Of a stretch of 29,778 nucleotides of DNA, positions 76 through 29,778 are shown piece by piece. The position numbers and the translations under genes are program-made. Source of the DNA: a virus (taxonomy: Duplodnaviria > Caudoviricetes); the IMG/VR virus record IMGVR_UViG_3300018030_000010, positions 1-29,778 of that record. One strand, written 5' to 3'. The notes beneath the pieces are model-generated. The model did not search any database, was not told the DNA's origin, and worked only from the letters and a program-made list of their open reading frames with translations. The first letter of the stretch is position 1. Each line of letters opens with the position of its first letter.

Positions 76-215
76 TTCACCACGAAGAACACGAAGAGCA
101 CGAAGAGTTCCCGTCGCGAGGCGATAGAACCAAAAGGAATTATTTTTTTTATGTGTTCCCACTTTTGCTTTCCTTCGTGCGCCTTCACCGCGCTTCGCTC
201 CCTCTTCGTGGTGAA
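76..215. repeat. Family A inverted element (CACCACGAAG-NN-CACGAAG-NN-CACGAAG ... CTTCGTGGTG) with AT-rich spacer
   Basis: Arms ttcaccacgaagaacacgaagagcacgaag and cttcgtg...cttcgtggtgaa; right part nearly identical to 4490-4548. Confidence 0.9.
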
Positions 216-219
216 TGCT

Positions 220-1170
220 TTAGCTTTCCAGCACTCCATCGTTCGTATCGGACACGCTTGGCACAGTCAAATTCGCGATCCCCTGGATGACCGGATCGAC
301 CAGGGCGTTTGCCGCCGCGATCGTGCTCCAGGCCTGTGCCTGCCCGTATGTGGCTGCCGCCAGGGAGAAAAGATCACCTCCAGCCATAAGCACCAGCGCG
401 CTCGTCTGCGATACGGCCCCGACGTTCGCCTGTATTCTGCCGAGCATCCCCGCAAGCGATACGAGCGCCTGCATTTGATTCATGGCCGTTATCGCCGCCG
501 CAATGGCCGCCGAGGTCACAAGAGGAAGCGTCCCCGCCGCTGCGATCCCGGTATTCGCCCCGATCGCTGCTTCGGCTGTAACCTGGAGGGCAATCACACG
601 CGCCTGCACGGCGGCAAGCGACTGAGTGACAACCGCCGCGGCGCTCGCGGCAAGGTTCACAAAGCTGGCCACGCCGGCGACTGCCGTCTGAAACGTGCCC
701 CAAAGCCCGGTCAGGACCGAATCGTTCACAACGGCCACCTGGGCCGTGGCCGTCGTCATGTCCGCAGAAATCTGATCGTCAAGCCCCGTATTTTGAACCT
801 GGGGCACGGGGGCCGAGAGGTTATCGACAACAATGCACCGGATCCGGTAAGGGATCTGGTAAAATCGCTGATATGCGGGATGAAATTCTTCGATTGTCAC
901 CGAATAGGCAAGCCTTCCCCAGGTAAGAGAAAGGGCATTTCCCTGCACGCGCAGATAATCGAGATGAAGCGCCCGGTCCATCGCGTCCGGCCCCTGGATG
1001 AGGCCGTTCCAATCGAGGTCCTTTTCGCGCCGGCCGAGAGCATCCACCTGGCGCCCGCCGCCGATTAGCTCATGTACTGCGAGCCTTTGCTGGCCTCCGA
1101 AGATGATTTCTTCCGGGATTTCCATGTCCCGAAAGATAAAATCTCCAAGCTGCAAAGTCGTATCAGGCAT
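220..1170 (-). CDS. Tail/baseplate protein with C-terminal LysM-like (gpX-like) motif, probable tube initiator
   Basis: N-terminal LQLGDFIF..EIPE.I.FGGQQRLAVH; C-terminal GDLFSLAAATYGQAQAWSTIAAANALVDP; follows tape measure; ATG at 1170 chosen. Confidence 0.75.
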   Translation of the reverse strand: MPDTTLQLGDFIFRDMEIPEEIIFGGQQRLAVHELIGGGRQVDALGRREKDLDWNGLIQGPDAMDRALHLDYLRVQGNALSLTWGRLAYSVTIEEFHPAYQRFYQIPYRIRCIVVDNLSAPVPQVQNTGLDDQISADMTTATAQVAVVNDSVLTGLWGTFQTAVAGVASFVNLAASAAAVVTQSLAAVQARVIALQVTAEAAIGANTGIAAAGTLPLVTSAAIAAAITAMNQMQALVSLAGMLGRIQANVGAVSQTSALVLMAGGDLFSLAAATYGQAQAWSTIAAANALVDPVIQGIANLTVPSVSDTNDGVLES

Positions 1171-1181
1171 CAAAAGAACCT

Positions 1182-1208
1182 TTCACGCGAAGACGCGAAG
1201 ACGCGAAG
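1182..1208. repeat. Family C left arm (CACGCGAAGACGCGAAGACGCGAAG), unpaired locally
   Basis: 8-bp unit x3, same as 11892, 14295, 27562. Confidence 0.85.
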
Positions 1209-1223
1209 GGAAATAGCATCCCA

Positions 1224-1673
1224 TTAAAAACTCCACCCATACTTCAGCCATTTTTCAGTACTTGTATAATTCAAGTGACGAATAGCCTCTTCTACTGTTT
1301 CGCCAAATCGACGCGTCCGAATATAGGTTTGCACATTGGGATATTTCGCCCTGTTCTCTGGATGCCCCCAGATGTCGGGTGGGTATTCATTTCTCAGAAC
1401 TGCAAAATCGAAGTCATAACCCTTTGCGACCGCTGATGGATATCGCCCGCAGATATCCAAGACAATTGGATATCCAAGGCCATCCCAAGATCCGACTTCC
1501 AGTACAATTGGTGAGCCTAATGGTCCTGGATAAGGATGGTGGCCGATGTAATCGACGGCCTCTCCGACATTTACATATGGCATGCGTGTCGCAGAAAAAG
1601 CGGAGACGGGAATTTGAGCTGCCACCGTTGCGGCAGCCAAAGCTTTTAAAAATTGCCGTCTTGTTATGTCCAC
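1224..1673 (-). CDS. Moron-like hypothetical protein with twin-arginine (Tat) signal peptide
   Basis: GTG start at 1673 after GGAG; MDITRRQFLKALAAATVAA matches T-R-R-x-F-L-K; visibly more AT-rich than neighbours. Confidence 0.7.
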   Translation of the reverse strand: MDITRRQFLKALAAATVAAQIPVSAFSATRMPYVNVGEAVDYIGHHPYPGPLGSPIVLEVGSWDGLGYPIVLDICGRYPSAVAKGYDFDFAVLRNEYPPDIWGHPENRAKYPNVQTYIRTRRFGETVEEAIRHLNYTSTEKWLKYGWSF

Positions 1674-1682
1674 CCCTGCTCC

Positions 1683-1712
1683 CTTCGTGCTCTTCGTATC
1701 CTTCGTGGTGGA
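1683..1712. repeat. Family A right arm, unpaired locally
   Basis: cttcgtgctcttcgtatccttcgtggtgga. Confidence 0.85.
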
Positions 1713-3560: not shown

Positions 3561-3708
3561 ATTCTCCATTTAGGAATTTGGGGATTTAGGAATGAACCCT
3601 CACTTCATTCGGATTCGCGTTGAACATTTCAACCCATGTGAAGCGATTTAAGTTTGGCGTCCGATCTTTTGTGAGGACGCAATTCCTCAATCCCTCAATT
3701 CCTCAATT
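3561..3708. repeat. Family D element (TTTAGGAA x3 ... AATTCCTC x3) with family E hairpin (3595-3680) inserted at its centre
   Basis: Near-identical inverted copy at 13456-13611. Confidence 0.9.
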
Positions 3709-3814
3709 ATTTTATCTTGCTAAGCAAAGACACCCCAATCGCCAGGCCGATCATGAGAAAAAACGTCGCGCCAACTCCAAGCGTGCACAAGGGCAGTGTA
3801 ATCATTTCACCCAT
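3707..3814 (-). CDS. Possible 35-aa single-pass membrane peptide (MGEMITLPLCTLGVGATFFLMIGLAIGVSLLSKIK)
   Basis: Manually translated small ORF filling the gap; one hydrophobic segment followed by Lys residues. Confidence 0.4.
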   Translation of the reverse strand: MGEMITLPLCTLGVGATFFLMIGLAIGVSLLSKIK

Positions 3815-3831
3815 CACCCATTACCCGGCTC

Positions 3832-4368: not shown

Positions 4369-4383
4369 TATGCAAAGCCTTTC

Positions 4384-4548
4384 TCACCACGAAGAGCACG
4401 AAGAACACGAAGAAAATATAGAATCACCACTTTGGCGATAAAGAGCTGCTCCGATCGAGCGACCTGGTGATGCTTTTTTGAAGAAGTTTTCCCACTTTTG
4501 CCTTTCCTTTGTGCTCTTCACCGCGCTGCGCTCCTCCTTCGTGGTGAA
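4384..4548. repeat. Family A inverted element
   Basis: tcaccacgaagagcacgaagaacacgaag ... cttcgtggtgaa; ends 3 bp from the TGA of the frameshift product. Confidence 0.9.
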
Positions 4549-5506: not shown

Positions 5507-5517
5507 TTCCCCTCCGC

Positions 5518-5546
5518 TCAGTCCTCAGTCCTCAGTCCTCAGTCCT
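5518..5546. repeat. Family I 7-bp tandem repeat (CTCAGTC x4)
   Basis: ctcagtcctcagtcctcagtcctcagtcct. Confidence 0.9.
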
Positions 5547-5983: not shown

Positions 5984-5999
5984 TTTATTCTCCTGAAAA

Positions 6000-6070
6000 T
6001 TTAGGAATTTAAGAATTTAGGAATTTAGGAATTCAATTCTTCAATCCCTCAATTCCTTAATCCCTCAATT
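6000..6070. repeat. Family D element (empty, no insert)
   Basis: tttaggaa-type units x4 then ttc(c/t)tcaa-type units x4. Confidence 0.9.
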
Positions 6071-6075
6071 CGCCC

Positions 6076-7623
6076 CTATTGCGGCGCGATCTGCGTGCTG
6101 ACCTTGTTCACCTGTACGCTCTGGCCGCCTTCCAGGTTTATGATGAACTTCTCCACTATGGACAGGTATGTGACCATCACGGAGGCCGTCATGTATCCCA
6201 GGGCCACCATGTTCTGCGGGTTGTTGCCCGCGTCGCATTCGACCGAAAAAGGTATCGTGCCGAGGCTGTTCCCGATCATGGGCGGGTTGATGGTCCATAA
6301 GTTCATGAGAAAGGCAGTGAGAGTCGCGGCTGCTTGCCGTTGCAGATCGAGGCTCTGCGTCTTGCCCACGTAATAGCCCATGCCGGCGTTGAGCGTGTAG
6401 GCGATGTAGTTCGTCATGCGCGTATAGTTGTCGCCGTGAATGACCTGGTTGCTCGACGTGTTCCAGCCGAACCGGGCCCCGAAATAATTGCCGCCGGGCA
6501 CCGGGTTGCAAATCAGGTCGATCCCCGCCTGGCCCAGGGCCTGCAAGTCGGCAGCGGAGTAAACCTGGTTCTGCATGCTCTTCTGGGTCCCGACGATCCC
6601 GTAGAGCTGCTTATTCAAGGTCGAATTCTGCGGGGAGAGGTTCGAGAGAAGCCCCGCTATAAACCCCTGCGGCGAGATGAGCCGCACCAGGTTGTTGACC
6701 GTATCGTTGAAATAGATCCAGTCGCCAAACAGGAGTTTAGCCGTGTAGGAATCGATGCCGGCTGAGGCCTTCGTCGCCGTGGCATTACTGATCGTGTCCC
6801 CGGCAGGCCCGACCATGATCATATAGACGCCTTCGCTTAGTCCGAAGGCTACCTGCGTTGTCCACGTGGCCGAAGTATCGCAGTCGGCGAGCATCCCGAC
6901 CGATGCCCCGGTATTTCTGAGAGCGTACATGCCCTGCCTCGGGATGGTGTCCTGGCCGAGAAGGGTGTTCGCCGTAACTCCCGATGCGCCGTCCGTTCCT
7001 CCGGAAAGAGTGACTGTCCCCGGCGAAGGTGCGGCAGTCCCGGCCCCGGCGCTCGCCACGATGAGCTGGCTCGGACCCCGAAGACCCGATATGCCGTTAT
7101 TTATGGCGCTTGCGATGGCAAGCCAGACCGCATTTCCGCCGAGCCCGGCGGCCAGGTTGTCAAAGACTTCGGGCATGACGCCCGGCATGGAAACCGTGGC
7201 CCTCCAGCTATTGGCGGCGGACCCCGCCGCGATGGTGACCTGGAGGCCGCTTCCGAGGCTCCCGGTATATTTCGATGTCACCGTGAGGCAGGTGGATTGG
7301 ATGGTCGTATTCGCCGCCAGGTCCGTGCCGTCCGTAACGCGCACGCACCTGAAATTGCTCGCCCCCTGAAGGACCGCCCCGGCAACGGCCGTACCCATGT
7401 CGTACTTGCGCGCCTGGATCTGCCCGAAAAGCTGCGCGTACTGCCACATGTCTCCGATGATCGTGGGCGAATTGACCGGCCCCCAGGCCGCAGTTCCCAC
7501 AACGCCCAGGATGTTCGTCGGCAGACCGTTTATGAGGTAATTGCTCGGCGGAATGATCTGCACGTACACGTCGGGCACGATAAGCGCCGTTAAATTGATT
7601 TGTCCCTGCTGAACTACAGGCAT
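6076..7623 (-). CDS. Contractile tail sheath protein
   Basis: 515 aa; PDVYVQII, GVVGTAAWGPVNSP, LSGGTDG, C-terminal IVEKFIINL. Confidence 0.92.
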   Translation of the reverse strand: MPVVQQGQINLTALIVPDVYVQIIPPSNYLINGLPTNILGVVGTAAWGPVNSPTIIGDMWQYAQLFGQIQARKYDMGTAVAGAVLQGASNFRCVRVTDGTDLAANTTIQSTCLTVTSKYTGSLGSGLQVTIAAGSAANSWRATVSMPGVMPEVFDNLAAGLGGNAVWLAIASAINNGISGLRGPSQLIVASAGAGTAAPSPGTVTLSGGTDGASGVTANTLLGQDTIPRQGMYALRNTGASVGMLADCDTSATWTTQVAFGLSEGVYMIMVGPAGDTISNATATKASAGIDSYTAKLLFGDWIYFNDTVNNLVRLISPQGFIAGLLSNLSPQNSTLNKQLYGIVGTQKSMQNQVYSAADLQALGQAGIDLICNPVPGGNYFGARFGWNTSSNQVIHGDNYTRMTNYIAYTLNAGMGYYVGKTQSLDLQRQAAATLTAFLMNLWTINPPMIGNSLGTIPFSVECDAGNNPQNMVALGYMTASVMVTYLSIVEKFIINLEGGQSVQVNKVSTQIAPQ

Positions 7624-7635
7624 GTTGCCCTCCTG

Positions 7636-7699
7636 AATTTAGGGATTTAGGGATTTAGGAATTCAATTCCTCAATTCTTCAATCCCTCAATTCCTGAAT
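7636..7699. repeat. Family D element (empty)
   Basis: aatttagggatttagggatttaggaattcaattcctcaattcttcaatccctcaattcc. Confidence 0.9.
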
Positions 7700-7712
7700 T
7701 TGTTTATTGATT

Positions 7713-7913: not shown

Positions 7914-7998
7914 CCACCACGAGCACGAAGATCATGAAGAAGGGCTTTTTGTATAAATAAATCTTTTCCTTAGTGTCCCCTTCGTGCTTCGTGGTGAA
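7914..7998. repeat. Family A inverted element (degenerate)
   Basis: ccaccacgagcacgaagatcatgaag ... cttcgtgcttcgtggtgaa. Confidence 0.85.
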
Positions 7999-8872: not shown

Positions 8873-8884
8873 TCAAAACCCTTC

Positions 8885-9133
8885 TCACCACGAAGATCAC
8901 GAAGGAACCCTCACTTCTTTCGGATTCGCGTTGAACATTTCAACCCATGTTAAATACTTCAAGTTCGCGTCCGATCTTTTGTGAGGACGCGCGAAAAAAT
9001 CTTTATGCGCTTCGCCGGCTGCCCGGCCACGTGCTATAGCACGTGCGCCGGCCCTGCGGGGTGCGGGGAAGTCACTTCCCCGCGGTCCTTATTTTTTGCC
9101 CTTCCTCTGTGTCCTCTGTGCCTCTGTGGTGAA
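8885..9133. repeat. Composite: family A left arm + family E (8906-8990) + family F palindromic element (9002-9085) + family B right arm
   Basis: Each module matches copies elsewhere (3595, 13492, 17504, 19018). Confidence 0.88.
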
Positions 9134-9215
9134 TGCTTTTGTTTTCAGCCAAAAGCCAGATTACGAAAAGTGCTATAAAAACTGCTAAAAGTTCCATCTC
9201 TCTTATCTTTTCCAC

Positions 9216-9246
9216 TCAGTCCTCAGTCCTGAGCAACTCAGTCCTC
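9216..9246. repeat. Family I 7-bp repeat
   Basis: ctcagtcctcagtcctgagcaactcagtcct. Confidence 0.8.
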
Positions 9247-9601: not shown

Positions 9602-9609
9602 AGGACCCT

Positions 9610-9726
9610 TTCACCACAGAGGCACAGAGGACACGGAGAAAAGAAACTGGCTTGGCTGAAGACAAAAATCTTTTGCATTTGCTTCCCGTTGATCTTCTCT
9701 GTGCTCTTCGTGCGCTTCGTGGTGAA
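9610..9726. repeat. Hybrid element: family B left arm, B/A chimeric right arm
   Basis: ttcaccacagaggcacagaggacacggag ... ctctgtgctcttcgtgcgcttcgtggtgaa. Confidence 0.85.
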
Positions 9727-10651: not shown

Positions 10652-10666
10652 CTCGAAACCCCATTC

Positions 10667-10804
10667 TCACCACGAAGACCACGAAGAACATGAAGAAGAA
10701 ACTTGTGGAAAAGAAAAGAAATCTGCAGAAATCTATTCCTTGTCCAAGAGATCTTTTCTCTTTACCCTTTGTGCCCTTCGTGCCCTTCGTGCCCTTCGTG
10801 GTGA
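10667..10804. repeat. Family A inverted element
   Basis: tcaccacgaagaccacgaagaacatgaag ... cttcgtgcccttcgtgcccttcgtggtga. Confidence 0.9.
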
Positions 10805-11863: not shown

Positions 11864-12022
11864 TTCACCACAGAGGCGCAGAGAAAGAGTTTTCACGCGA
11901 AGACGCGAAGACGCGAAGAAGGGAATACGAAAAGCCCAACTTTTGCCTTGCTTCGCGTCTTCGCGGCTTCGCGTGAGATCATTTTTGCCTAGCCTCTATA
12001 CTCTCTGTGTCTCTGCGGTGAA
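11864..12022. repeat. Family B element with complete family C element nested inside (11892-11976)
   Basis: ttcaccacagaggcgcagag [ttcacgcgaagacgcgaag...cttcgcgtga] ctctgtgtctctgcggtgaa. Confidence 0.9.
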
Positions 12023-13442: not shown

Positions 13443-13455
13443 TGCGATTACTCCT

Positions 13456-13611
13456 AATTGAGGGATTGAAGGATTGAGGAATTAAAGAATTGCGTCCTCA
13501 CAAAAGATCGGACGCCGAACTTAAATCGCTTCACACGGGTTGAAATATTCAACGCGAATCCGAATGAAGTGAGGGTTCATTCTTAAATTCCTAAATTCCT
13601 AAATGGAGAAT
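13456..13611. repeat. Family D + family E composite, inverted relative to 3561-3708
   Basis: E reverse complement at 13492-13577; end motif taaatggagaat equals reverse complement of 3561-3572. Confidence 0.9.
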
Positions 13612-13896: not shown

Positions 13897-13916
13897 GATT
13901 AGCTCCTTTCGAAATT

Positions 13917-14053
13917 CCACCACAGAGGTACAGAGGTCACGGAGAAAGACAATCAAGAGGGGACAAGAGGTCCCCTTCTTTAACTATGCCGTTTTCTTTC
14001 CTCGATGCTCTCCGTGTCTCTGTGGTGAGGCCGTTCCGCGCCTCTGCGGTGAA
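13917..14053. repeat. Family B inverted element with a duplicated right end
   Basis: ccaccacagaggtacagaggtcacggag ... ctccgtgtctctgtggtga ... cctctgcggtgaa. Confidence 0.88.
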
Positions 14054-14056
14054 TGC

Positions 14057-14511: not shown

Positions 14512-14523
14512 GACAGTTATTTG

Positions 14524-15204: not shown

Positions 15205-15230
15205 GATTTTTAACTCCCAATTGAAAGACA

Positions 15231-17012: not shown

Positions 17013-17099
17013 AAGGCGCCGCCGTGGAAGACGGCGCTACCTCATAAATTGAGATATCTTCCTATCCGGTAGCGCCGCCTTCTTCCACGGCGGCGCCTT
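17013..17099. repeat. Family G: inverted pair of GTAG-REP-like palindromes (REPIN-like doublet)
   Basis: GTAG followed by CGCCGCC...GGCGGCG palindrome, two copies inverted around a 26-bp AT-rich spacer. Confidence 0.85.
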
Positions 17100-17110
17100 C
17101 GCACCCGTTT

Positions 17111-17479
17111 TTAAGCCGCATCCCCATTTTGCCTTTGCTCTTCTTCGTGTCCTTCGTGTCCTTCGTGGTGAGATTGCTTTTCCACGATCCTCATCGGATT
17201 TTGTGCCTGCTTCATCGCCGCCCTCAGCGCCTCGAACCCCGGCGGCAGCACCGCATCTTCACCGCCGCATTTTTTGCAGACGTACTTGAACAGGCTCGAT
17301 TGAAAGAATGGCTGACCGGTTTGATTCGCCGGATGGTCTTCGGCTATCCAGACTACCTGATAAACCGCCTCGAACTCCGGATGCCCGCAAATTTTGCAAA
17401 CCATAACTGCCGTGTCCATCGGTCCCGGCTCCCTGGGCGCTTCCGCCTTTTTTTTGCCCTTATTTTTCCGCTCGCTCAT
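17111..17479 (-). CDS. Hypothetical zinc-ribbon protein; C-terminus encoded by a family A arm (17142-17171)
   Basis: CKIC...CKKC; ends SHHEGHEGHEEEQ. Confidence 0.65.
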   Translation of the reverse strand: MSERKNKGKKKAEAPREPGPMDTAVMVCKICGHPEFEAVYQVVWIAEDHPANQTGQPFFQSSLFKYVCKKCGGEDAVLPPGFEALRAAMKQAQNPMRIVEKQSHHEGHEGHEEEQRQNGDAA

Positions 17480-17503: not shown

Positions 17504-17670
17504 TTTATGCGTTTCGCCGGCTGCCCGGCCATGTGCGGAACCCTCACTTCGTTCAGGTCCGCGCTGAGCATTAGAACCAGCGTTCGGTACTTCAAACTCA
17601 TGCCCGATCTTTTGTGAGGGCGCGCACGTGCGCCGGATATTGAGGGGTGCGGGACGGTCACCGCTCCGCG
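17504..17670. repeat. Family F element with family E (17539-17623) inserted at the centre of its CACGTG palindrome
   Basis: Flanks match uninterrupted F at 9002-9085. Confidence 0.88.
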
Positions 17671-17673
17671 CTC

Positions 17674-19005
17674 TTAATCTTTTCCGTTTTTTCCCTCCGG
17701 GTCCTCTGTGTCCTCTGTGTCTCCGTGGTGAATGTCTTTCTTCTTCCCTACGAGCATCTGCGTTTCCGCCGCAGTCATGTCCCCGAATTTGCTCTTCATC
17801 GGAGGCCTGCTTGTCATTGCTCGATACTCATTCGGCGTAGTTGCATTATTGCGGTATTCAATTCCATATCTCCTTGCGACTTCCGTTTCGTCCTCTCTGT
17901 CCAGCGTGGTCCATCGAAAATGTATCTGGTAGAAGCCCAGTTTCCCTTCGATCATTTCCCTATTTATATGCCGTCTAATGAGACCGGCAGTCGGGATGAT
18001 GGCTATCTCCCAATCGCGATCTGTTGCGACCTCGGCTGTGCTCCGATTGACATCAGCTTCAAGGCCCATATTCATTGGGGAGATTCCGAAGGGAACTGCG
18101 ATCTCCCTGATGATATGCTCCTGATATTTGAGATAGAGGGCTGCATCGCTACCCGCATGGAGCTTTATGGCCTTGAGGTCCTGGTAGCCAACAATCGGCA
18201 TGGCCCCCTGGCCTTCAATTTCATCGTGCCACCAGCTCCTCACCCTCTTGATTTGATCTTCAGTCGCTCCTTGAAAAAGAATTATATTTTGTGGCTGCGC
18301 ATTTCCGGCTACGTTCCCGGAATATTCAGCCGTCGTCAATTGCCGGTTGAGGGTTGCGAATGCTATTTCTAGCGGCCCGAAGCCGAACGGGTTCTCGGTT
18401 GTCGGATCTTTGCGGATATAGATTAGTTCGTCATTCCGAAGCTGGATTCCCTGGACGCCGCCTATGTTGCCGTATCCGAGCGTCTGCAGGTATCTCGCTT
18501 CATCCCACGCCCCGGTCCATCCGGCGTATATCTGTATGGACATCCCATCGACCGGCCAAAGCCATACGGGCCGTTTCGGGTCCGATCCGAGTTGCTGTTC
18601 TATCGCGCCGGCGCCACATACTAAAATGTCCTCAACCGTTTGCTCGGCCAGGCTTTCGAACGAATCATCGCGATTTGGCCTCTCCAAACATGATGTTGTA
18701 ATGTTGATTTGCCTTTTAATTTCAGACGTTAACGCTACGCCTGGCTTTGGTACGATCTCCCACTGACCTCTATCGCATAGAGTGCCAATCGGGTCCTTGA
18801 TCGTATTTATTGCGCGCCTGGCATACGGCGTCCGCGAAAACTTCCGGACGTTCATCGCCGTGGGCTTGATGAGCGGTTTTTCCCGCGTCGTGTAGCCCCC
18901 GACGTTCATTAACCTGGGATAAAGCCTCGTTTCCCGCACAGGCTCCTGTCTGCGCCTGCCGATTTTCTTCGCCTTCTCCCAGGCTCGCTTCATCAATCCC
19001 GGCAT
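17674..19005 (-). CDS. Portal protein (HK97-like); C-terminus encoded by a family B arm (17703-17732)
   Basis: LWPVDG, ELIYIR...FGFGPLE, IAVPFGISPMNMGL..VNRSTAE, TPNEYR; follows terminase. Confidence 0.88.
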   Translation of the reverse strand: MPGLMKRAWEKAKKIGRRRQEPVRETRLYPRLMNVGGYTTREKPLIKPTAMNVRKFSRTPYARRAINTIKDPIGTLCDRGQWEIVPKPGVALTSEIKRQINITTSCLERPNRDDSFESLAEQTVEDILVCGAGAIEQQLGSDPKRPVWLWPVDGMSIQIYAGWTGAWDEARYLQTLGYGNIGGVQGIQLRNDELIYIRKDPTTENPFGFGPLEIAFATLNRQLTTAEYSGNVAGNAQPQNIILFQGATEDQIKRVRSWWHDEIEGQGAMPIVGYQDLKAIKLHAGSDAALYLKYQEHIIREIAVPFGISPMNMGLEADVNRSTAEVATDRDWEIAIIPTAGLIRRHINREMIEGKLGFYQIHFRWTTLDREDETEVARRYGIEYRNNATTPNEYRAMTSRPPMKSKFGDMTAAETQMLVGKKKDIHHGDTEDTEDPEGKNGKD

Positions 19006-19169: not shown

Positions 19170-20648
19170 TTATATGCTTCCCAGCGCCAGCGGAAATTCC
19201 GCCTCCATCGACGTCGCGAAGACGACCATCGCCCCGGCGATTGCGGCGTCCCCGTGCCTCTGCTCGCCGTCTTTTTTCACCCGGCTAGACTCCGGGACCT
19301 TCGCCACGCCCTTGATCATCTTAAGCGATCTCAAATCCTCCATGACCCTGCTGTCTTTGGCGATGAGCAATTCCTTGTCGTCAATCCGCGCCTTGAATTT
19401 CGGCATGTTTTCGCGATACCAGCCTTCAGTCAGCATCACTTCGGCTATCCGGTCCGGACCGTATTTCTGCCGGGCGACTTCGGCCAGATATTGGCCGTTT
19501 CCTCTGGCGTCGAGCGCCCCGCCGCTGAATCGCGGGAGCCGGTCGCAAATGAAGTAAAATATTTGCTTCTGCGCCTCGAACGGCATATTGCGCAGTTCGA
19601 GGATAAAAGGCGTCGCCAGAAGAAGATTGGGCATTTCCTGCGCCGGCCAAAATACGGAAAGATCTCCCAGCCTTCCGAAGTCCCCCCCGACATAGCTCGG
19701 CAGTGCGGGCGCAAGCCGGCTCAAAAGCGGGGCGAGATTTTCTTCACACCAGTCCTGTATTTCCAGCACGCGCTGCGCCTCACTCCAATCGACAAAATCC
19801 TGCGCCGGCGGGGCCCACCTGATAACGGGGATTTCGGCCCTCATGCACGCTTCGATTTGCGCCCGCGTCAGATAAAGGCCGCTGCCCTTGCTCGGGATGC
19901 AAAAGAGTTCCTCGTCGGCGTTGTCGCCGTAAAAATCTATGAGTTGCTGGCGCCACTCCTCTTCCTTTTTCTGGCTCCATTCTTCGCCTTTTACGAGGCA
20001 GATCCGCCTGTAAAGTCCCTCGGCCAGGGCCTCGTCGAGCGTCTCCCTGTGCAGCGAGTATTTTTTCTTACCGGCCCTTATGTCCTGGATATACTGGTTG
20101 AATTCGTTGTCTTCGCCGTTGTGCGTGGATATCACTTCGACCTGGCCGCCCCACATGACGAGCGCGATCGCGGCCTTCAAAAGCTCGTCCAGGTCGTCGC
20201 AAAAGGCCGCTTCGTCGAGGACTACGCGGCCCTGCTTGCTCCGCAGGTTCCGGGGCGCGCTGGTCAGTGCGCTCACGTGCCGCCTCGAGGCAAATCTCAC
20301 CCGGTAGATGTGAATTTCTTTGTCATCTTCCAGGATCGTTTCTTCTTCGATATCGGAAACGGCCATCTCGAACCGTTTCGCCCATATGGCGACGTCGCCT
20401 ATGTATGTCTCGGTCATGGATTTATCGTAGGAGATGTAAAACGTATTCATCTTGTCTTCGGCCGCAAGCAGGCAACTCTCCGAAGCGTCCCCATAGGATG
20501 CCCCTATGCGCCGTGATTTTTCCCAGAACTTTATGGCCGCCCGGTCTTCGTTCCACCGGTTCTGATAAGGCAAAAGAAGGGCCGGCGCCACAGGTGCAGG
20601 ACTGAGTGCTGAGTGCTGAGGACTGAGGATGGAAGATTGAGAACTCAT
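19170..20648 (-). CDS. Terminase large subunit, Mu gp28-like
   Basis: LLPYQ, EKSRRIGASY (Walker A), VVLDEAAF (Walker B), ISTHNG, GGDFGR, DARGNG, HGDAAIA; N-terminal ~17 aa encoded by family I repeat. Confidence 0.95.
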   Translation of the reverse strand: MSSQSSILSPQHSALSPAPVAPALLLPYQNRWNEDRAAIKFWEKSRRIGASYGDASESCLLAAEDKMNTFYISYDKSMTETYIGDVAIWAKRFEMAVSDIEEETILEDDKEIHIYRVRFASRRHVSALTSAPRNLRSKQGRVVLDEAAFCDDLDELLKAAIALVMWGGQVEVISTHNGEDNEFNQYIQDIRAGKKKYSLHRETLDEALAEGLYRRICLVKGEEWSQKKEEEWRQQLIDFYGDNADEELFCIPSKGSGLYLTRAQIEACMRAEIPVIRWAPPAQDFVDWSEAQRVLEIQDWCEENLAPLLSRLAPALPSYVGGDFGRLGDLSVFWPAQEMPNLLLATPFILELRNMPFEAQKQIFYFICDRLPRFSGGALDARGNGQYLAEVARQKYGPDRIAEVMLTEGWYRENMPKFKARIDDKELLIAKDSRVMEDLRSLKMIKGVAKVPESSRVKKDGEQRHGDAAIAGAMVVFATSMEAEFPLALGSI

Positions 20649-21811
20649 GAACCCTCTCCCATAAGCAATTTGCGCCGCAGTTCTTCCGCCATCTCGCTTG
20701 AAAGTCCTTTCCGTTTCTCCTTATCCGTCTTCTGCCTTCCGTCCTCCGATCTCCGTCTGAGAACTTCGATCAGTTCCATCGCATCCTTTACGGCCTTTAC
20801 CTGGGCCGGCCTGGCCACGCCCCGGGCAGTCTGCATAAGCCATAATTGATGCCTCACGAAATTCTGCAGCGCCTCGATTGCCTCTTCCTCGGTCATAAGC
20901 CCGACATCGGTCAGCACAACGGCTTCTTCTGGGGCCCCTATTGACGCAGCCGTGGAAGGCTGCGCTACCGCTTCTGATTTGGTGGCGCCGTCTTCTATGG
21001 CGGCACTGTCTGCCCGCTCTGTCATCCTTGCCAGATACGCCTGCGCCCGCTCGATCTCCGCGACTTTTATTTTCTCCGGATGATCGAGCATGGCGTTTAT
21101 CATTCTTGAAAACGCCTCCCAAAGAGCCTCGCGCGCATCTTCAGGGCTTGTAATTCCGCGCATTGCGGCTTCCAATTTTTGATCTTCTTCGCGGCCTTCG
21201 CGGCTTTCCTTGCCCCGTCCACGATCGGTGATATCGCCAGTTTTAAGTTGCTCTATCACCGCCAGCGCCTCGCGGATCTCCCGGAATGTGCCCGCGTTGA
21301 CTTTCTCCGGATCTCCGAGCACCCGCCCGATCCGGACGTCGACCAACTCTTCGAGGGCTGCGATCCGCTCCTCATCACCACTTATCACCCGCGCCGGAAC
21401 TTCATTCTCCGTCTTTGGCGCTTCGTCCTCAGTCCTCAGTCCTCGGTCCTCAGTCCTCCGTCTTACGGCTATCATCGTCTTCACCAGGCCGCAAAACGCA
21501 TAACAGGCCTGGTTGTCCACCACGCCGGCCGCCAGCGCCTCGAAATAATCTTCATAACGTTGCTTCTGCTTCCCCAGGGCTGCCACCAGGCCATTCTCCG
21601 CAATGGATGCCGCCTGCCGTTGCATCTCGGCTTCCAGGCTAGCCGCCCGGTTTTTCCAATCATATTTTTGCGCCCAGGCCATGAGCGTCTGCCGGCTGAC
21701 CGGCAGCCCGAGATCGGCGCGCTTGAGCCTGCGCTCCGTCTCGGAAAAATTCTGCCCGCATTCGATCCAGGTCCGGTATGCAAGCTCTCTTGCCTGTGTC
21801 TTTTCACTCAT
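20645..21811 (-). CDS. Putative terminase small subunit, expanded (N-terminal HTH plus three helical repeats)
   Basis: HTH-like VSRQTLMAWAQKYDW; C-terminal KGLSSEMAEELRRKLL typical of Mu-like small terminases; ATGA overlap with large subunit; start 21811 chosen. Confidence 0.7.
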   Translation of the reverse strand: MSEKTQARELAYRTWIECGQNFSETERRLKRADLGLPVSRQTLMAWAQKYDWKNRAASLEAEMQRQAASIAENGLVAALGKQKQRYEDYFEALAAGVVDNQACYAFCGLVKTMIAVRRRTEDRGLRTEDEAPKTENEVPARVISGDEERIAALEELVDVRIGRVLGDPEKVNAGTFREIREALAVIEQLKTGDITDRGRGKESREGREEDQKLEAAMRGITSPEDAREALWEAFSRMINAMLDHPEKIKVAEIERAQAYLARMTERADSAAIEDGATKSEAVAQPSTAASIGAPEEAVVLTDVGLMTEEEAIEALQNFVRHQLWLMQTARGVARPAQVKAVKDAMELIEVLRRRSEDGRQKTDKEKRKGLSSEMAEELRRKLLMGEGS

Positions 21812-21820
21812 AAAAAAACT

Positions 21821-21941
21821 CCACCACAAAGGCACAGAGGGGACCGAGAAAAGCATTCGTGGGGAGAATGCAGGGCTAAAAGCTCTTGGATTTTATGCAT
21901 AGCAATTCTCTTCTCTGTGCCCTCTGTGTCTCCGTGGTGAA
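21821..21941. repeat. Family B inverted element
   Basis: ccaccacaaaggcacagagg ... ctctgtgccctctgtgtctccgtggtgaa. Confidence 0.88.
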
Positions 21942-22238
21942 TCAGCACTCAATCCCGCAATCCTTCACGCGCCCATCCATTGCATCGATCCCATACGCGG
22001 TGATCCTTACGAGCGTTATCCCGAACCCTTCTTTCCTGTCGAGTGTCAGGCAACTCTTTTCGGCCAGGTAATTCAGATAAAAATCCAGCGTATGCGAATC
22101 CATCGGATACCCAAGGGTCGCCATAGTCGCCCGCAGAAGCTCCGAATCCACGGACCGGGGATAGGCCTTTGCGGCGATTGTCAAAATGTGCCGTCTCATC
22201 ATGTTATGCCGGACGTTCGCGAGCTCATCGACGGCCAT
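21942..22238 (-). CDS. Mu gp26-like winged-helix protein
   Basis: RRHIL...LNYLAEK...RITAYGIDAMDGR...GI pattern and position upstream of small terminase. Confidence 0.7.
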   Translation of the reverse strand: MAVDELANVRHNMMRRHILTIAAKAYPRSVDSELLRATMATLGYPMDSHTLDFYLNYLAEKSCLTLDRKEGFGITLVRITAYGIDAMDGRVKDCGIEC

Positions 22239-22627: not shown

Positions 22628-22636
22628 AAATCTTTC

Positions 22637-22797
22637 TCACCACGAAGATTGTTGGCGTAAAAACAAAAAATCTATCACCACGAAGAGCACGAAGAGCACG
22701 AAGGAAAAAATTCATAGGGAGAGGCAATGCCTAAAAAGTTTTGGTTTTTATCCATAACGAGTCTTTTCTTCGTGTCCTTCGTGCCCTTCGTGGTGAA
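22637..22797. repeat. Family A inverted element with an extra partial left arm
   Basis: tcaccacgaag ... tcaccacgaagagcacgaagagcacgaag ... cttcgtgtccttcgtgcccttcgtggtgaa. Confidence 0.9.
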
Positions 22798-22805
22798 TTC
22801 TTCTC

Positions 22806-23093: not shown

Positions 23094-23126
23094 TTGGTTC
23101 GCCGCCGTGGAAGGCGGCGCTACCTC
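23094..23126. repeat. Family G REP-like copy; perfect 33-bp inverted match to 24004-24036
   Basis: ttggttcgccgccgtggaaggcggcgctacctc. Confidence 0.92.
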
Positions 23127-23475
23127 ACTCTTCATGACTTATTGATGCTGAAGGTTGCAAAGGCGCTCCTCCCGCTCCCGCATTGAGGGTCCGGTTTAGC
23201 TGCTGGACCTGCCCTGCAATCTTCGACGGGTCCCCATCGATTAGGTCCTGCATCTCCTGCTCGATCTTAGGGCCAACAACATCAAATGTTTTTCTAATAG
23301 GCTCGGGCAAATCGGCTTGTACGCCCTGCCAGCCGGCGATGAAAAACTGAGAGAGGAACTCAAGTACATAATTCGGCCGCAATTGCGTTGATTTGCCAAT
23401 TGCCTCGGAGAGATAAAAGAGCAAATAACCCACTGGGCAGATGACGTAGATCCAGATCGGGATTTCGACTGTCAT
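23125..23475 (-). CDS. Hypothetical membrane protein
   Basis: N-terminal hydrophobic segment; ATGA overlap with upstream gene; AAGGAG RBS. Confidence 0.65.
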   Translation of the reverse strand: MTVEIPIWIYVICPVGYLLFYLSEAIGKSTQLRPNYVLEFLSQFFIAGWQGVQADLPEPIRKTFDVVGPKIEQEMQDLIDGDPSKIAGQVQQLNRTLNAGAGGAPLQPSASISHEE

Positions 23476-23885: not shown

Positions 23886-24100
23886 TGCGTTTTTCTTTCC
23901 CTTTCCCACTCCCGAAACCGTTCGCAGAGGTCGCGACACTCCGATATCCCCGCGATTACTCGATAATTCACGCAGTTATAGCAGGGACAATCGAATGGGA
24001 TGGGAGGTAGCGCCGCCTTCCACGGCGGCGAACCAAGCGGTCGGCAACCTTCCCCTCCCTGCTTCTCGCTTCCCGCTTCCATCTCCATCACCAATCCCAT
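23882..24100 (-). CDS. Small Cys-rich hypothetical protein
   Basis: CPCYNC...CRDLCERFREW; stop overlaps PLA2-like ATG (ATGA); N-terminal half runs through repeat sequence. Confidence 0.5.
   Translation of the reverse strand: MGLVMEMEAGSEKQGGEGCRPLGSPPWKAALPPIPFDCPCYNCVNYRVIAGISECRDLCERFREWERERKTQ
24004..24036. repeat. Family G REP-like copy
   Basis: gaggtagcgccgccttccacggcggcgaaccaa. Confidence 0.92.
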
Positions 24101-24860: not shown

Positions 24861-24910
24861 TTATTTCTCCTCACTGCTCATTCTTCACTGTTCACTGCCC
24901 TTAATCCCCC

Positions 24911-24955
24911 AAAACAAAAAAAGCCCGGCCCCACGCTTTCGCGTGGTGACCGGGC
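24911..24955 (-). terminator. Intrinsic terminator downstream of the Com-like gene
   Basis: Minus strand gcccggtcaccacgc-gaaa-gcgtggggccgggc followed by a U-tract. Confidence 0.75.
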
Positions 24956-24981
24956 ATCGTGTGCCTCTGGGGCGACTGGAA

Positions 24982-25049
24982 GAGTTTTGAGTTTCCAGTT
25001 TCGAGTTTTTAGTAATTATTCAAAACCAAAAACTCCCAACCAAAAACTG
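24982..25049. repeat. Family K 7-bp inverted element (AGTTTTG-like ... CAAAAAC-like)
   Basis: gagttttgagtttccagtttcgagtttttag / caaaaccaaaaactcccaaccaaaaact. Confidence 0.7.
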
Positions 25050-25112
25050 CCCTTCCCGTCCGGCGGCTTTATTTCTCCGCTTCGGCCCTCAAGGGGGCTC
25101 TAAATTGTCACG

Positions 25113-25508: not shown

Positions 25509-25556
25509 CGCCTTCCCTCTTTTATCCTACCTCCGCCCTCTTACCTCCGACCTCCG

Positions 25557-25838: not shown

Positions 25839-25861
25839 TTCATGCTCCTTTCAAAAGATGC

Positions 25862-25889
25862 TCACCACAGAGGCACAGAGGGCATGGAG
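25862..25889. repeat. Family B left arm, unpaired locally
   Basis: tcaccacagaggcacagagggcatggag. Confidence 0.85.
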
Positions 25890-26170: not shown

Positions 26171-26182
26171 GACTTTTCCTTT

Positions 26183-26245
26183 CTTCGCGGCTTCGCGTCT
26201 TCGCGTGAAATGCTTGAAGTCGCCGCCGTGGCAGGCGGCGCTACC
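26183..26245. repeat. Family C right arm (26183-26209) plus family G copy (26221-26245)
   Basis: cttcgcggcttcgcgtcttcgcgtgaa; cgccgccgtggcaggcggcgctacc, which contains the gemA stop codon. Confidence 0.85.
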
Positions 26246-26825
26246 GTCTCGGCCTATGTTCTTCGATAAACCTCATGATCTTCGGATCGTCAAACTGCTT
26301 GTCCCACCAATCCTTCCCGCACAGTTTCTCCATGCGATGCTCAAACATCTTCTTGAGGCCTTCTATAACGAGCCACGCCTCGCGCGAGGTCCTCACTCTG
26401 TCGATCCTGAGCCGCTTTTCCATCCAGCGCTTGAGGCCGTCGCGGTATTCCCAATCGATCAGCGCGGCCAGGGCGTCGATTTTCGCAAGCTCCTGGAAGC
26501 TGGCCAGGCGCACGAGCTTTCCATCCTCGCGCCCCGTTTCCCGCTGCGGGCGGCGGCGCCGCACCCAACCTGAATAGCTGCTCCCGGTCCTCCGCGTTCT
26601 TTTCTTCGTCTCGAACCCCAAAATCTCGAAGCGCTCGATTAGCCTTGTCGCTTCCATTCTTGTGAGCTGCGTGCAGCTCGATACCTTGAACTGCTCCAGG
26701 AGCATGGCCCGGTATGTATCATCATCCATGCCCAGTTCCTTTTGGGCGATCTTGATGATCTGGATCTGTCCCCGGCTGATCGGGTCCGGGAATTTGTTTG
26801 TTGATGTTTGTGTGCTGCGATTCAT
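26241..26825 (-). CDS. gemA: Mu GemA (gp16, DUF1018)-like regulatory protein
   Basis: QIQIIKIAQKELGMDDDTYRAML...SSCTQLT; LAKIDAL; AWLVIEGLKKM; start 26825 chosen. Confidence 0.88.
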   Translation of the reverse strand: MNRSTQTSTNKFPDPISRGQIQIIKIAQKELGMDDDTYRAMLLEQFKVSSCTQLTRMEATRLIERFEILGFETKKRTRRTGSSYSGWVRRRRPQRETGREDGKLVRLASFQELAKIDALAALIDWEYRDGLKRWMEKRLRIDRVRTSREAWLVIEGLKKMFEHRMEKLCGKDWWDKQFDDPKIMRFIEEHRPRR

Positions 26826-27541: not shown

Positions 27542-27561
27542 CGATTTTTCCTTTCATTTTG

Positions 27562-27627
27562 TTCACGCGAAGACGCGAAGCCGCGAAAATTCGAAAGCAT
27601 CTCACGCGGAGACGCGGAGCCGCGAAG
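27562..27627. repeat. Two tandem left arms (family C and C')
   Basis: ttcacgcgaagacgcgaagccgcgaa and tcacgcggagacgcggagccgcgaag. Confidence 0.85.
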
Positions 27628-27629
27628 AG

Positions 27630-27866: not shown

Positions 27867-27898
27867 CGCCTATCGCTCCTTAAAAACTTAAAAATGTC

Positions 27899-28011
27899 TC
27901 ACCACGAAGAGCACAGAGAGCACGAAGATATCTTTTCGAGAAAAAGCTCCCGGATCTGTCTGCCTTAAATGCTTAGTCATTCTTCGTGTCCTTTATGTCC
28001 TTCGTGGTGAA
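27899..28011. repeat. Family A inverted element (one B-type unit)
   Basis: tcaccacgaagagcacagagagcacgaag ... cttcgtgtcctttatgtccttcgtggtgaa. Confidence 0.88.
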
Positions 28012-28015
28012 GGCC

Positions 28016-28720
28016 CTACTGCAGCCCCTCCAGCACCCGGCTCAATTCACTCGAAAGCTGCTTGATCTTCGCCACCTGGTCCCGGCGCACAAAAATATCG
28101 CCGAACTCCTCCTGGATCCGCTTGATCTCGGCCGCATATTTGGCCGGGTCTCCTTTTACCTGCTGAAGGAGCCCGGTCACGACCGCCACCCATGCCGGAG
28201 GACCGTCCTCGCCGGGTCCCGGAACATCGGCGATATCGCGGTGCATCTTTGCCTCGCCTTCAAACCCAAGACTGAGTTGCACCATTGCGTCGGCATAAGC
28301 GGCTTTGCGGCCCCGCGCGGCTTTGACCAGGCCCGTCATTGCGCGCCGGTGAAACGCCCTGTAATTACCTTCGACGTCTTCCTTGCTCGCCGGCAGCCAG
28401 TATCCGCCGCCGTTTCCGGCCATGCAGCAGATTGATATGCCGTGCGTTATAATGAGGCTGTTTATGGTCTCCCGCACCTGCCGTTTGCAGGATTCGATCC
28501 GCGTGCGCTCTTCATTCCAGTTCGGCGTTTCCGATTCCCAGATCGTCGGATAGATGATCTGCGCCAGGGCATTGGACGATAGCCTTCCCGCGTGCCCGAG
28601 GGGTTTTCCACTTTCGTCGTATCCAGCCTGTACCAGCGCAGCCAGTATCAGCCGTTCGTTGTCATCGAGCCTGTTTCCATCCAGCGCCGCCCGGGCGCTT
28701 TTAAGAGATCCGATTTCCAT
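28016..28720 (-). CDS. Hypothetical winged-helix-like phage protein
   Basis: KRQVRETINSLI..HGISI...GGGYWLP pattern; AAGGAG RBS. Confidence 0.65.
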   Translation of the reverse strand: MEIGSLKSARAALDGNRLDDNERLILAALVQAGYDESGKPLGHAGRLSSNALAQIIYPTIWESETPNWNEERTRIESCKRQVRETINSLIITHGISICCMAGNGGGYWLPASKEDVEGNYRAFHRRAMTGLVKAARGRKAAYADAMVQLSLGFEGEAKMHRDIADVPGPGEDGPPAWVAVVTGLLQQVKGDPAKYAAEIKRIQEEFGDIFVRRDQVAKIKQLSSELSRVLEGLQ

Positions 28721-28743
28721 TGTCCGCTCCTTTGAAAAGCTTT

Positions 28744-28828
28744 TTCACCACGAAGGCCACGAAGCTCACGAAGAAAAAGATATCTTCATTTTTTACTCTT
28801 CCTCTTCTTCGTGTCCTTCGTGGTGGAC
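28744..28828. repeat. Family A inverted element overlapping the 3' end of 28793-29458
   Basis: ttcaccacgaaggccacgaagctcacgaag ... cttcgtgtccttcgtggtgga. Confidence 0.88.
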
Positions 28829-29458
28829 CAATGCCACTCCCAGGATTTCGCCCATCAAATTTCCAACGGCTCGCGCCGCAGCCTTTTCCTTCCATTGCCC
28901 GCAACCCAACATTTGATTCCCAGAAGTCGGGCTGCTTTTTACTTCACATCCTCTCGGTGGCCGGAATGATTCACACGTAAAACAACCTCTTCGGGTTGGT
29001 TTATGCGCAGCCGTGGAAGGCTGCGCTACCGTATCCTCTTCGCGGCTTCGCGGCTTCGCGTGAACCTGCTCTCTCTCTGCCTGCGCTGCGATTCCGCGCG
29101 CCTTCGTCCACACTACCTTTCTCAGATAGTTGTGGTTCTCCAGCTCCCTTTTGCCCTTCTCGCACATTTCCAACATCACTTCGGCCCACAGCTCCGGAGG
29201 CGCCGGCCGGGTTTCCCCGCCCTCCCAATGGACAGAACCGGCAGCAACCAGGTCTTTTAGCTCCTGGAGTATCCGCAGCGCCCGCTTCCACGACAATCCC
29301 CGCGTGCCGATCCTGAATAGCCCCAGATAGTTCGCCGCATGATGCTGAACATGATGAGGCAGCCCGGACATCACGGCGCTGAACTGCCGCACTGCCGCAT
29401 CGTTTTCCCATCCTTCCAGGCTGTATGTTCCCCCGCATCCGGGGCAGACAAGCTTCAT
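28793..29458 (-). CDS. Mu-like phage hypothetical protein with N-terminal CxxC
   Basis: MKLVCPGCG..YSLE, YLGLFR...LSWKRA, LENHNYLRKV; contains in-frame G and C repeats at 29007-29063. Confidence 0.75.
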   Translation of the reverse strand: MKLVCPGCGGTYSLEGWENDAAVRQFSAVMSGLPHHVQHHAANYLGLFRIGTRGLSWKRALRILQELKDLVAAGSVHWEGGETRPAPPELWAEVMLEMCEKGKRELENHNYLRKVVWTKARGIAAQAEREQVHAKPRSREEDTVAQPSTAAHKPTRRGCFTCESFRPPRGCEVKSSPTSGNQMLGCGQWKEKAAARAVGNLMGEILGVALVHHEGHEEEEE

Positions 29459-29778
29459 AAATTCTCACCGGTAGCGCCGCCTTGAACCCTCACTTCGTTC
29501 GGATTCGCGCTAACACTTGCGGCCGACGTTAAACGATTCAAGTTCGCGTCCGATCCTTTTTGAGGGCGCACGGCGGCGGAAGATCCTTGCGTCCTCGGCC
29601 AAAATCCGGGAGTTGTCCAGTCCTGGTCGGCCATCTCCGCCCCCGGAGGCAAATCATAAAAATGCCTTTCCTTTTTCACGCGGCTACACATACCGAGCCT
29701 CAATTGCCCCTGGGCCTCGAGTAGTTCGCGCTCATATTGCCATTCTGATCTGAAAAGGCCGCAGGCTTCGACGCTGCC
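29455..29778 (-). CDS. 3' part of a hypothetical gene (frame open to window edge) carrying an in-frame G+E insertion
   Basis: Frame open 29778-29455; TGA overlaps next ATG (ATGA). Confidence 0.5.
   Translation of the reverse strand, partial: GSVEACGLFRSEWQYERELLEAQGQLRLGMCSRVKKERHFYDLPPGAEMADQDWTTPGFWPRTQGSSAAVRPQKGSDANLNRLTSAASVSANPNEVRVQGGATGENL
29470..29578. repeat. Family G palindrome with family E (29485-29569) inserted in its loop
   Basis: ggtagcgccgcctt[gaaccctcac...tgagggcg]cacggcggcg. Confidence 0.9.

Follow-up and report, generated by a model that had tools for sequence, protein, structure and literature searches.

The virus record IMGVR_UViG_3300018030_000010 (Duplodnaviria; Caudoviricetes), a stretch of 29,778 bp that we analyzed in its entirety (hereafter the window), belongs to a Mu-like prophage in which short hairpin elements without genes occupy every spaced junction between phage genes. 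The arms of these elements are shared with gene-bearing cassettes on bacterial chromosomes, namely those encoding GxxExxY proteins, four-helix-bundle proteins and RAYTs, and the family found at a given junction usually changes from one related phage to the next. The elements are thus host-derived, and we favor as the probable explanation that they are non-autonomous elements, likely mobilized in trans, whose copies build up and replace one another where genes meet in phage operons; the mobilization itself we infer from these comparisons.

The window is the whole of its virus record, includes no host DNA, and has all annotated genes on the minus strand. Genes named by family matches include those for GemA, Com, terminase, portal, sheath, neck and tape-measure proteins; the capsid (10812-11837) and protease (12030-13442) labels are inferred from position, no family match naming either. 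At 99.99% identity the window is contained in a larger record, G002 (49,882 bp, provirus, 94% complete), which adds a repressor (repressor PHROGs), a DDE transposase and a transposition ATPase (phrog_310, phrog_296), and the carrier is therefore a Mu-like prophage, to which the GemA (PF06252) and Com (PF10122) genes of the window also point. Eight further sequences of this phage differ from G002 by 0-4 substitutions or one 1-nt indel; the elements are therefore no assembly artefact. The nearest relative found in a genome is a prophage (L028) in a metagenome-assembled genome (MAG) of the Syntrophobacteraceae, G001, which gave the sole match to a capsid query among the 81 genomes of the family.

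Repeat arms at every spaced junction

Phage late operons are usually compact. In the window, a curated list of 40 genes defines 41 junctions with both window ends counted, and at least one arm of 13 motif families lies in 36/36 junctions with a gap of at least 26 nt, a count that is not blind because the motif list was derived in part from the window itself. None of the five overlapping or abutting junctions (5111/5114, 20645/20648, 22238, 23472/23475 and 25322/25323) has an arm. The individual motifs are likewise far above expectation, with 16 matches for A9 (CACGAAG), 11 for C8, 10 for D8, four for E7, six for the GTAG palindrome and five for an 85-nt element, G89; these motifs average 0-0.2 in 20 dinucleotide-model shuffles. 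Tandem Repeats Finder detects the tandem arrays independently of these motif counts. The 85 arm matches divide into 78 at junctions and seven within open reading frames (ORFs), and those at 14874 and 12599 are probably spurious. An earlier, sequence-only reading of the window had proposed near-total occupancy of its junctions by at least eight families, with the overlapping or abutting junctions bare; both proposals hold, and the number of families, at least eight as stated, comes to about 13 in our count. That reading had also listed 24100-24237 as an empty junction, which fails, having rested on a probably spurious ORF (23882-24100); the actual gap, 23885-24237, holds a GTAG repetitive extragenic palindrome (REP) and a 7-mer array.

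The arms were further said to lie within a few bases of the upstream stop and the downstream ribosome-binding site, which is true in part. Among 18 left TCAC arms, 11 begin 1-12 nt past the stop codon and two at 32-33 nt, but five begin inside the upstream ORF, 34-61 nt within it, and some arms lie in frame in genes. Sixteen right arms end 9-32 nt before a start codon, several of them supplying the best anti-Shine-Dalgarno match. Unpaired TCAC arms follow a single polarity: those close to the stop are purine-rich, and those close to the start pyrimidine-rich. All 21 of the 21 elements folded are more stable than expected (z -2.2 to -13.2), with similar energy on either strand. Elements are also nested in one another, C8 inside B9 and G89 inside both D8 and the H hairpin, and a 147-nt composite of D8 enclosing G89 is present twice, in inverted orientation and with 93% identity (3561-3707 and 13465-13611). 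The window gave no Rfam match at gathering thresholds, its elements show no systematic terminator signal, and its nine promoter-like sites, versus about 14 expected, are not tied to the elements. The best of these sites (10/12; 25117-25144, minus strand) falls within the final part of the Com-like gene and is upstream of the late genes.

Turnover of families between related phages

The G001 prophage, assembled on two contigs, is syntenic with G002, most shared proteins being 50-88% identical. In 33 junction comparisons between the two, which we scored by eye, the same family was found in six, the related D8 and D8b in two, another family in 15 and no detectable element in 10; one G002 junction enters twice, once for each side of a 6.2-kb insert, and another comparison lies where a contig begins. 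Alignment of related prophages, as the sequence-only reading had suggested, thus finds the same family in only 6/33 comparisons. A third relative (L010) again has different junction families, and in an unrelated group of lambdoid phages, whose aligned blocks are 74-93% identical, the families differ junction by junction; an unrelated lambdoid tail module also has hairpin families beyond those of the window at its junctions (L282, L283, L288, L298). Among 38 distant relatives, 30 have no arm match and eight have one. In such relatives the adaptor-g116, g116-g288 and tape-measure-g316 gene pairs overlap (medians -4, -1 and -4; n=20, 27 and 5), so that the window elements sit at junctions that are closed there; the corresponding window gaps measure 129, 378 and 549 nt, the latter two including a small gene. 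A small hydrophobic ORF lies between g116 and g288 in three phages (window 9072-9194; L028:10458; L010:894), with different surrounding repeats in each.

These comparisons bear on two other explanations that the sequence-only reading had offered. In the first, extended here to a domesticated RNA layer, the hairpins of whatever origin would now be kept because any stable stem between cistrons could adjust how the late transcript is processed, how long it lasts or how its translation is coupled. The filling of all 36 spaced junctions, the stability of the stems and the seating of the arms (11/18 left arms just past the stop, and right arms close before the start, several with the best anti-Shine-Dalgarno match) are as this would predict. 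Against it, 10/33 comparisons show no element in a relative that looks functional, distant relatives overlap their genes at these sites, folding is equal on either strand with one composite present in both orientations, and terminator or promoter signals are not systematic. Moreover, 24 A9 pairs were compared, a small set in which one phage group contributes duplicates, one pair is doubtful and G-U wobble is possible; complementarity of the variable bases between arms was 25/48 versus 21.7 when shuffled, and 18/48 versus 18.0. As these bases are no more complementary than shuffled ones, a repeated DNA site fits better than a selected RNA stem. With occupancy unconserved and no arm-to-arm covariation of the variable positions, RNA-processing stems are not favored, and we regard this explanation as unlikely.

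In the second, a gene-level cassette system, the dispersed arms would be recombination points for the gain, loss or swapping of accessory genes. Three accessory genes do lie between mismatched left and right arms, two of them in the window (1224-1673 and 25901-26170) and the third between transposase A and B of G002, and the G001 prophage lacks a counterpart of each at the same place; furthermore, the hybrid A9/B9 element at 9609-9724 stands where that relative has a 6.2-kb cluster opening with a B9 arm. This support is circumstantial, and it is countered by the retention of core gene order despite many homologous arms, by arms being as frequent between core genes as beside accessory ones, by homology tracts of just 25-40 nt, and by the lack of any recombinase or integrase family among the phage ORFs scanned, which together make it distinctly improbable. 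Insertion and replacement of non-autonomous elements is the better account of the turnover.

Host origin of the arms and their partner genes

The sequence-only reading had stated that similar arms flank GxxExxY and four-helix-bundle genes in some bacteria, and this proved correct. G001 has nine GxxExxY gene matches (six over the cut-off) and 11 four-helix-bundle matches; short-period arms adjoin 8/8 GxxExxY-like loci among the matches listed and 8/11 four-helix loci. The arms beside these genes include the A9, B-like, C8-like and E7 arms of the window, GAAGCRG and a relative of D8. TCAC arms bracket TIGR04256 genes (A9 at L098, L122 and L125; B-like at L097 and L100; C8-like at L101), and tandem 7/8-bp arms bracket TIGR02436 genes (E7 at L110, GAAGCRG at L112 and GGGTGAA at L106). 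In the case of D8, it is the related variant D8b, rather than the exact unit of the window, that brackets four-helix genes (L107, L108). Two intact A9 cassettes in other genomes of the family match TIGR04256 with 146-149 bits, and also PF13366; the GxxExxY cargo belongs to the PD-(D/E)XK nuclease family. The best phage arms are 93-100% identical to those of intact cassettes over 25-38 nt. Intact cassettes are co-oriented with, and lie directly past the stop codon of, a host gene, and would consequently rely on read-through. The arms match such cassettes rather than insertion sequences (IS): they are common to the GxxExxY and four-helix cassettes, and the one IS110 copy of G001 inspected has unrelated ends. 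Another locus, L405 (G001:C168), has an IS110-family element inside a 7-mer repeat array of the four-helix type.

The GTAG palindrome is a RAYT-associated REP. Its pattern occurs in 23/81 genomes of the family, and in the genome G077 GTAG arrays lie on both sides of a RAYT gene (L453:1702-2181; NF047646, 103.4 bits, cut-off 80), which supplies the RAYT partner. The six window copies comprise one inverted doublet (17013-17100) and otherwise singlets. Arms of the A9, B9, C8, D8 and 7-mer families were not seen beside the six Y1 genes of G001.

The phage itself has none of these genes: profile matches found no GxxExxY, four-helix-bundle or RAYT gene in G002, in keeping with the earlier statement that no mobilizing gene is recognizable. 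No remnant of decayed cargo was found in the phage spacers, and 0/35 arm-bearing virus records have GxxExxY or four-helix cargo over the cut-off.

Enrichment in prophages

With a strict A9/B9 pattern, G002 has 27 matches (541 per Mb) and G001 has 30, nine of them in its Mu-like prophage (170 versus 3 per Mb). A pipeline covering all families gives, per 10 kb, 9.0 sites in G002, 6.4 in the Mu-like and 5.2 in a podovirus-like prophage of G001, 0.8 in 20 unselected G001 host tracts and 1.5 in a ribosomal-protein region. In total, G002 has 45 sites over 49.9 kb, the two G001 prophages have 34 over 53 kb and 11 over 21 kb, and the unselected G001 DNA has 32 over 400 kb; per ORF the figures are 45/52, 34/59, 11/26 and 32/349, with 3/30 in the ribosomal region. 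A fair estimate within one genome is therefore an enrichment of about 5-8 fold. The podovirus-like prophage (G001:C7 about 57,000-78,200; L299, L300) has D8b, E7 and G89 at consecutive junctions, and this prophage, the lambdoid phages and others that are also filled exclude an effect specific to Mu-like phages. An IMG/VR scan returned 113 stretches with an exact A9 arm, and several unrelated ones among 35 records examined further are dense, e.g. 13 arms in 15.3 kb and nine in 18.0 kb. Dense clusters are not all prophages: those of G021, G017, G014, G020 and G076 are host operons by their ORFs, and two of these five surround an intact cassette.

There remains the notion that no phage effect exists, the true host being saturated genome-wide and the prophage mirroring it: the true host is not among the genomes sampled, some host tracts have several filled junctions in a row, and shorter phage genes give more junctions per kb, but as the densest of the 81 family genomes has 13-15 strict A9/B9 arms per Mb versus 541 in G002, as both G001 prophages exceed host DNA 4.6-6.3 fold per ORF, and as about 2.5 kb left of the repressor, all the flanking DNA found for this phage, has no arm of the six families scanned, we give it little chance, and prefer accumulation of trans-mobilized elements in the phage. 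An SDH/Clp-fold serine-proteinase-like gene lies within this element-free DNA (L118:4954-6021).

The nested element G89

G89 is an 85-nt imperfect hairpin with sub-terminal inverted repeats and no target duplication. Besides the five window copies (3594-3678, 8905-8989, 13493-13577, 17538-17622 and 29484-29568), it occurs at loci L307-L391, usually inserted within other repeat families, and its excision in silico restores the parent repeat exactly in L316, L325 and L326. Among the 80 loci listed of the 85, most are in MAGs of the Syntrophobacteraceae and a few in deltaproteobacterial MAGs without further classification, and from this narrow range the Syntrophobacteraceae are the likely host family of the phage. 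G001 has 109 pattern matches (100 of the 109 being listed), and these are less skewed, with 6/109 in the Mu-like prophage (113 versus 15 per Mb). No recurrent neighboring gene that might act as mobilizer emerged across the 85 loci. IS110 and GIY-YIG genes were considered in this role and set aside, the one IS110 copy inspected (of two) having other ends and the one GIY-YIG match inspected (of three) having other repeats. The preference of an 85-nt element for insertion into other elements, like the sink pattern of the phage, appears to be new.

A model for accumulation and its weaknesses

Of the three options raised by the sequence-only reading, a trans-mobilized community of non-autonomous elements fits best, on account of the partner genes, the family turnover and the enrichment; the part of it that does not stand is targeting exclusive to phages. 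Under this model, gene-less copies of several host repeats would be inserted, nested and replaced repeatedly by proteins encoded on the host chromosome. The cassette proteins may recognize the arms as DNA sites, with a fixed 7-bp core and free 2-bp spacers, and the GxxExxY, four-helix and RAYT proteins of the host would move empty copies in trans. Copies would land at or near the stop codons of co-oriented genes, as intact promoterless cassettes do, and survive where the stop and the ribosome-binding site are kept, which a folded hairpin would rejoin. Phage operons might fill faster than they empty, being silent in the lysogen, present in many copies on induction and exposed to the mobilizers of successive hosts; long one-strand phage operons would thereby act as a sink, with no benefit to the phage required.

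Several observations weigh against this model. The enrichment was measured in a relative, G001, the host of the window itself being unsampled. Host operons are filled too, among them flagellar, Hdr-like and other clusters and a G076 host tract of 40 kb, and six sites lay in a single tract of the 20 taken without selection; thus, although the enrichment is real, the earlier idea of phage-specific targeting has to be relaxed. The eight nearly identical phage copies show no presence/absence polymorphism, and for the TCAC and 7-mer families no empty/filled pair was close enough to show an insertion footprint. Adjacent junctions share a family nine times versus 9.4 expected, and chance adjacency lends no support to short-range hopping along the phage, which we rejected; same-family clustering is weak (D8, p 0.03; GTAG, p 0.02; six tests, uncorrected). 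The search for partner genes of G89 and H gave none, and in the literature searched no mobilization of arms by GxxExxY or four-helix proteins is reported. Finally, complete occupancy and the strict polarity of half-arms exceed what pure neutrality obviously predicts.

A bolder extension of the trans-mobilization model, which we consider speculative and rather doubtful, is that the GxxExxY and four-helix proteins constitute an undescribed machinery placing hairpins at the translational stop-start junctions of heavily transcribed polycistronic operons. Induction would then be its main arena, temperate phages would be reservoir and inter-host vector of an element community that includes second-order parasites such as G89, inserting solely into other elements, and the hairpins might double as interchangeable gene connectors.

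Elements within coding sequence and other features

Alignment with the relative reveals that elements have added sequence in frame: TerL gains 17 residues at its N-terminus, the TerS-like gene contains two elements, and the putative protease has a run of 7-mers. Several ORF ends read through arms (28793-28826, 26885-26926, 17111-17172 and 17674-17735), producing HHEGHEE-like tails; for the portal, the tail comes from a B9 arm in the window and from a C8 arm in the G001 prophage. At L028:4441-4530, a B9 right arm lies within the likely 5' end of a gene, and the hydrophobic stretch it encodes could act as a signal peptide. The early region of G002 has a PLD-family nuclease and a ThyX gene (L076:8422-9955), neither matched in the G001 prophage. 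An ORF at window 23472-23885 has a weak match, below the cut-off, to prokaryotic phospholipase A2 (PF09056). Lastly, at 4695-4745 an A-run at the end of ORF 4713-5114 is followed by a short out-of-frame ORF, which we take to resemble a tail-chaperone frameshift.

Table 1. Repeat elements and context genes of the window (window coordinates; strand not assigned for the elements)
Position	Strand	Feature	Family match
74..216		A9 (TCACCACGAAG-NN) pair in inverted orientation, with arms of GxxExxY type	
1181..1208		C8 right half-arm, enclosing accessory gene 1224-1673 together with A9 half at 1683-1712	
1683..1712		A9 left half-arm, 8 nt past tape-measure stop	
3561..3707		D8 (four-helix-type 8-mer) pair, G89 nested at 3594-3678; inverted 93% twin at 13465-13611	
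3807..3826		7-mer array (TCACCCA)	
4382..4548		A9 pair	
5517..5546		E7 (CTCAGTC) solo left arm immediately 5' of next ribosome-binding site	
5997..6072		D8 pair, sheath-to-tube junction; D8b+G89 or another family there in relatives	
6076..7623	-	Tail sheath (context)	phrog_23
7635..7701		D8 pair before sheath gene; 18-nt empty gap in G001 prophage	
7916..7998		Degenerate A9 pair	
8884..9135		Composite of A9 right arm, G89 (8905-8989), H hairpin at about 9005-9085 and B9 left arm; distant relatives have overlapping genes here (median -1, n=27)	
9215..9246		E7 array	
9609..9724		Hybrid A9/B9 pair; overlap in distant relatives (median -4, n=20), 6.2-kb gene cluster in G001 prophage	
10665..10804		A9 pair	
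11864..12022		B9 (TCACCACAGAG) pair with nested C8 pair; outer B9 pair only in G001 prophage	
13191..13224		7-mer array (TGCTTCC), in frame in putative protease/scaffold gene	
13455..13611		D8[G89] composite, inverted relative to copy at 3561	
13916..14056		B9 pair	
14295..14512		C8 pair enclosing C8-variant pair	
14822..14889		7-mer pair (GGTAATA / TAACCCC)	
15229..15303		D8 pair	
17013..17100		Inverted GTAG REP doublet (REPIN-like)	
17141..17172		A9 left arm within 3' end of ORF 17111-17479	
17505..17735		H hairpin with nested G89 (17538-17622), and B9 left arm read through by portal C-terminus	
17674..19005	-	Portal (context)	PF04860
19017..19138		B9 pair, terminase-to-portal junction; other families there in G001 prophage	
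19170..20648	-	Terminase large subunit (context)	phrog_2
20598..20629		E7 arm in frame, part of 17-residue N-terminal extension of large terminase	
20945..20972		GTAG REP in frame, small-terminase-like gene	
21425..21462		E7 array in frame, small-terminase-like gene	
21820..21942		B9 pair; arm end forms GGAG before next start	
22635..22798		A9 pair and additional degenerate right arm	
23094..23127		GTAG REP	
24004..24080		GTAG REP and 7-mer array, in gap earlier counted as empty	
24871..25050		7-mer arrays (TCACTGT; GAGTTTC / AAAACTC pair)	
25515..25556		7-mer array (TCCGACC)	
25860..25885		B9 right half-arm; with C8 half at 26180 encloses accessory gene 25901-26170	
26180..26248		C8 left half-arm and GTAG REP	
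26241..26825	-	GemA, Mu-like marker (context)	PF06252
26838..26926		A9 pair; putative endolysin C-terminus runs into left arm	
27561..27628		Two C8 right half-arms	
27898..28012		A9 pair	
28744..28826		A9 pair overlapping 3' end of ORF 28793-29458; A/B arm shared with G001 prophage here	
29006..29062		GTAG REP plus C8 arm, within ORF 28793-29458 and in frame	
29468..29572		GTAG half and G89 (29484-29568)	

Relationship to known systems

Among the closest known counterparts of the window elements are the hairpin cassettes of GxxExxY (TIGR04256/PF13366) and four-helix-bundle (TIGR02436) genes, with which they share arms and stop-start position; unlike these, the phage holds empty forms only, at complete occupancy and mixed with REPs and nested G89. 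In the literature searched, which covers subscription papers thinly, neither these cassettes nor junction saturation is described, though tables of PMC11602168 may list some of the elements; GxxExxY is mentioned incidentally in the accessible part of 10.1101/2021.01.26.428298. In the REPIN-RAYT system, as described in PMC3116915, gene-less extragenic inverted repeats are proposed to be moved in trans by a repeat-flanked gene, new copies inserting within or beside those already present. To this class the GTAG family belongs as a true REP, but most window families pair with GxxExxY or four-helix genes and have tandem 7-9-bp units and variable spacers. In Pseudomonas, according to the section of PMC3390384 consulted, mobile elements map to REP-free deserts, whereas here prophages are the element-richest regions.

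MITEs (miniature inverted-repeat transposable elements) have also been surveyed in viruses. In that survey (PMC11602168), viral MITEs are host-derived non-autonomous inverted-repeat elements by which a phage can be connected with its host; positives made up 0.01% of viral sequences, most with two and rare ones with up to 30, and phages of Desulfobaccales and Acidobacteriae are among those listed. The window elements too are host-derived, gene-less inverted repeats in a phage, and have the classical MITE features of terminal inverted repeats and no coding capacity; no target-site duplication was seen in G89, whose removal restores the parent repeat, and the other families offered no close empty site. 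They differ in that every spaced junction is filled, the internal sequence is unconserved and the partners are not classical transposases. The promoter-stem-loop cassettes (PeSLs) of T4-type phages, intergenic units and possible recombination points, are, according to PMC2839356, phage-owned promoter-terminator units of hyperplastic regions. Both are repeated intergenic cassettes at gene boundaries, but those of the window are host-shared, fall into many families, have no promoters and lie in a core morphogenesis operon.

Implications

The pattern described here reverses that of surveys in which viruses seldom have miniature elements and mobile regions lack REPs, and it does so in several unrelated phages. 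Within the individual phage, the elements reshape proteins, giving them new C-termini and the large terminase a 17-residue extension, and they fingerprint the host, G89 pointing to the Syntrophobacteraceae. The system also offers a test bed for two orphan protein families, GxxExxY and the four-helix bundle, since a single 50-kb replicon has dozens of natural insertion sites, relatives provide orthologous sites that are empty, and the expected outcome of phage induction is clearly defined. If the likely reading is true, dormant viruses would be a sink for gene-less host elements moved by host proteins.

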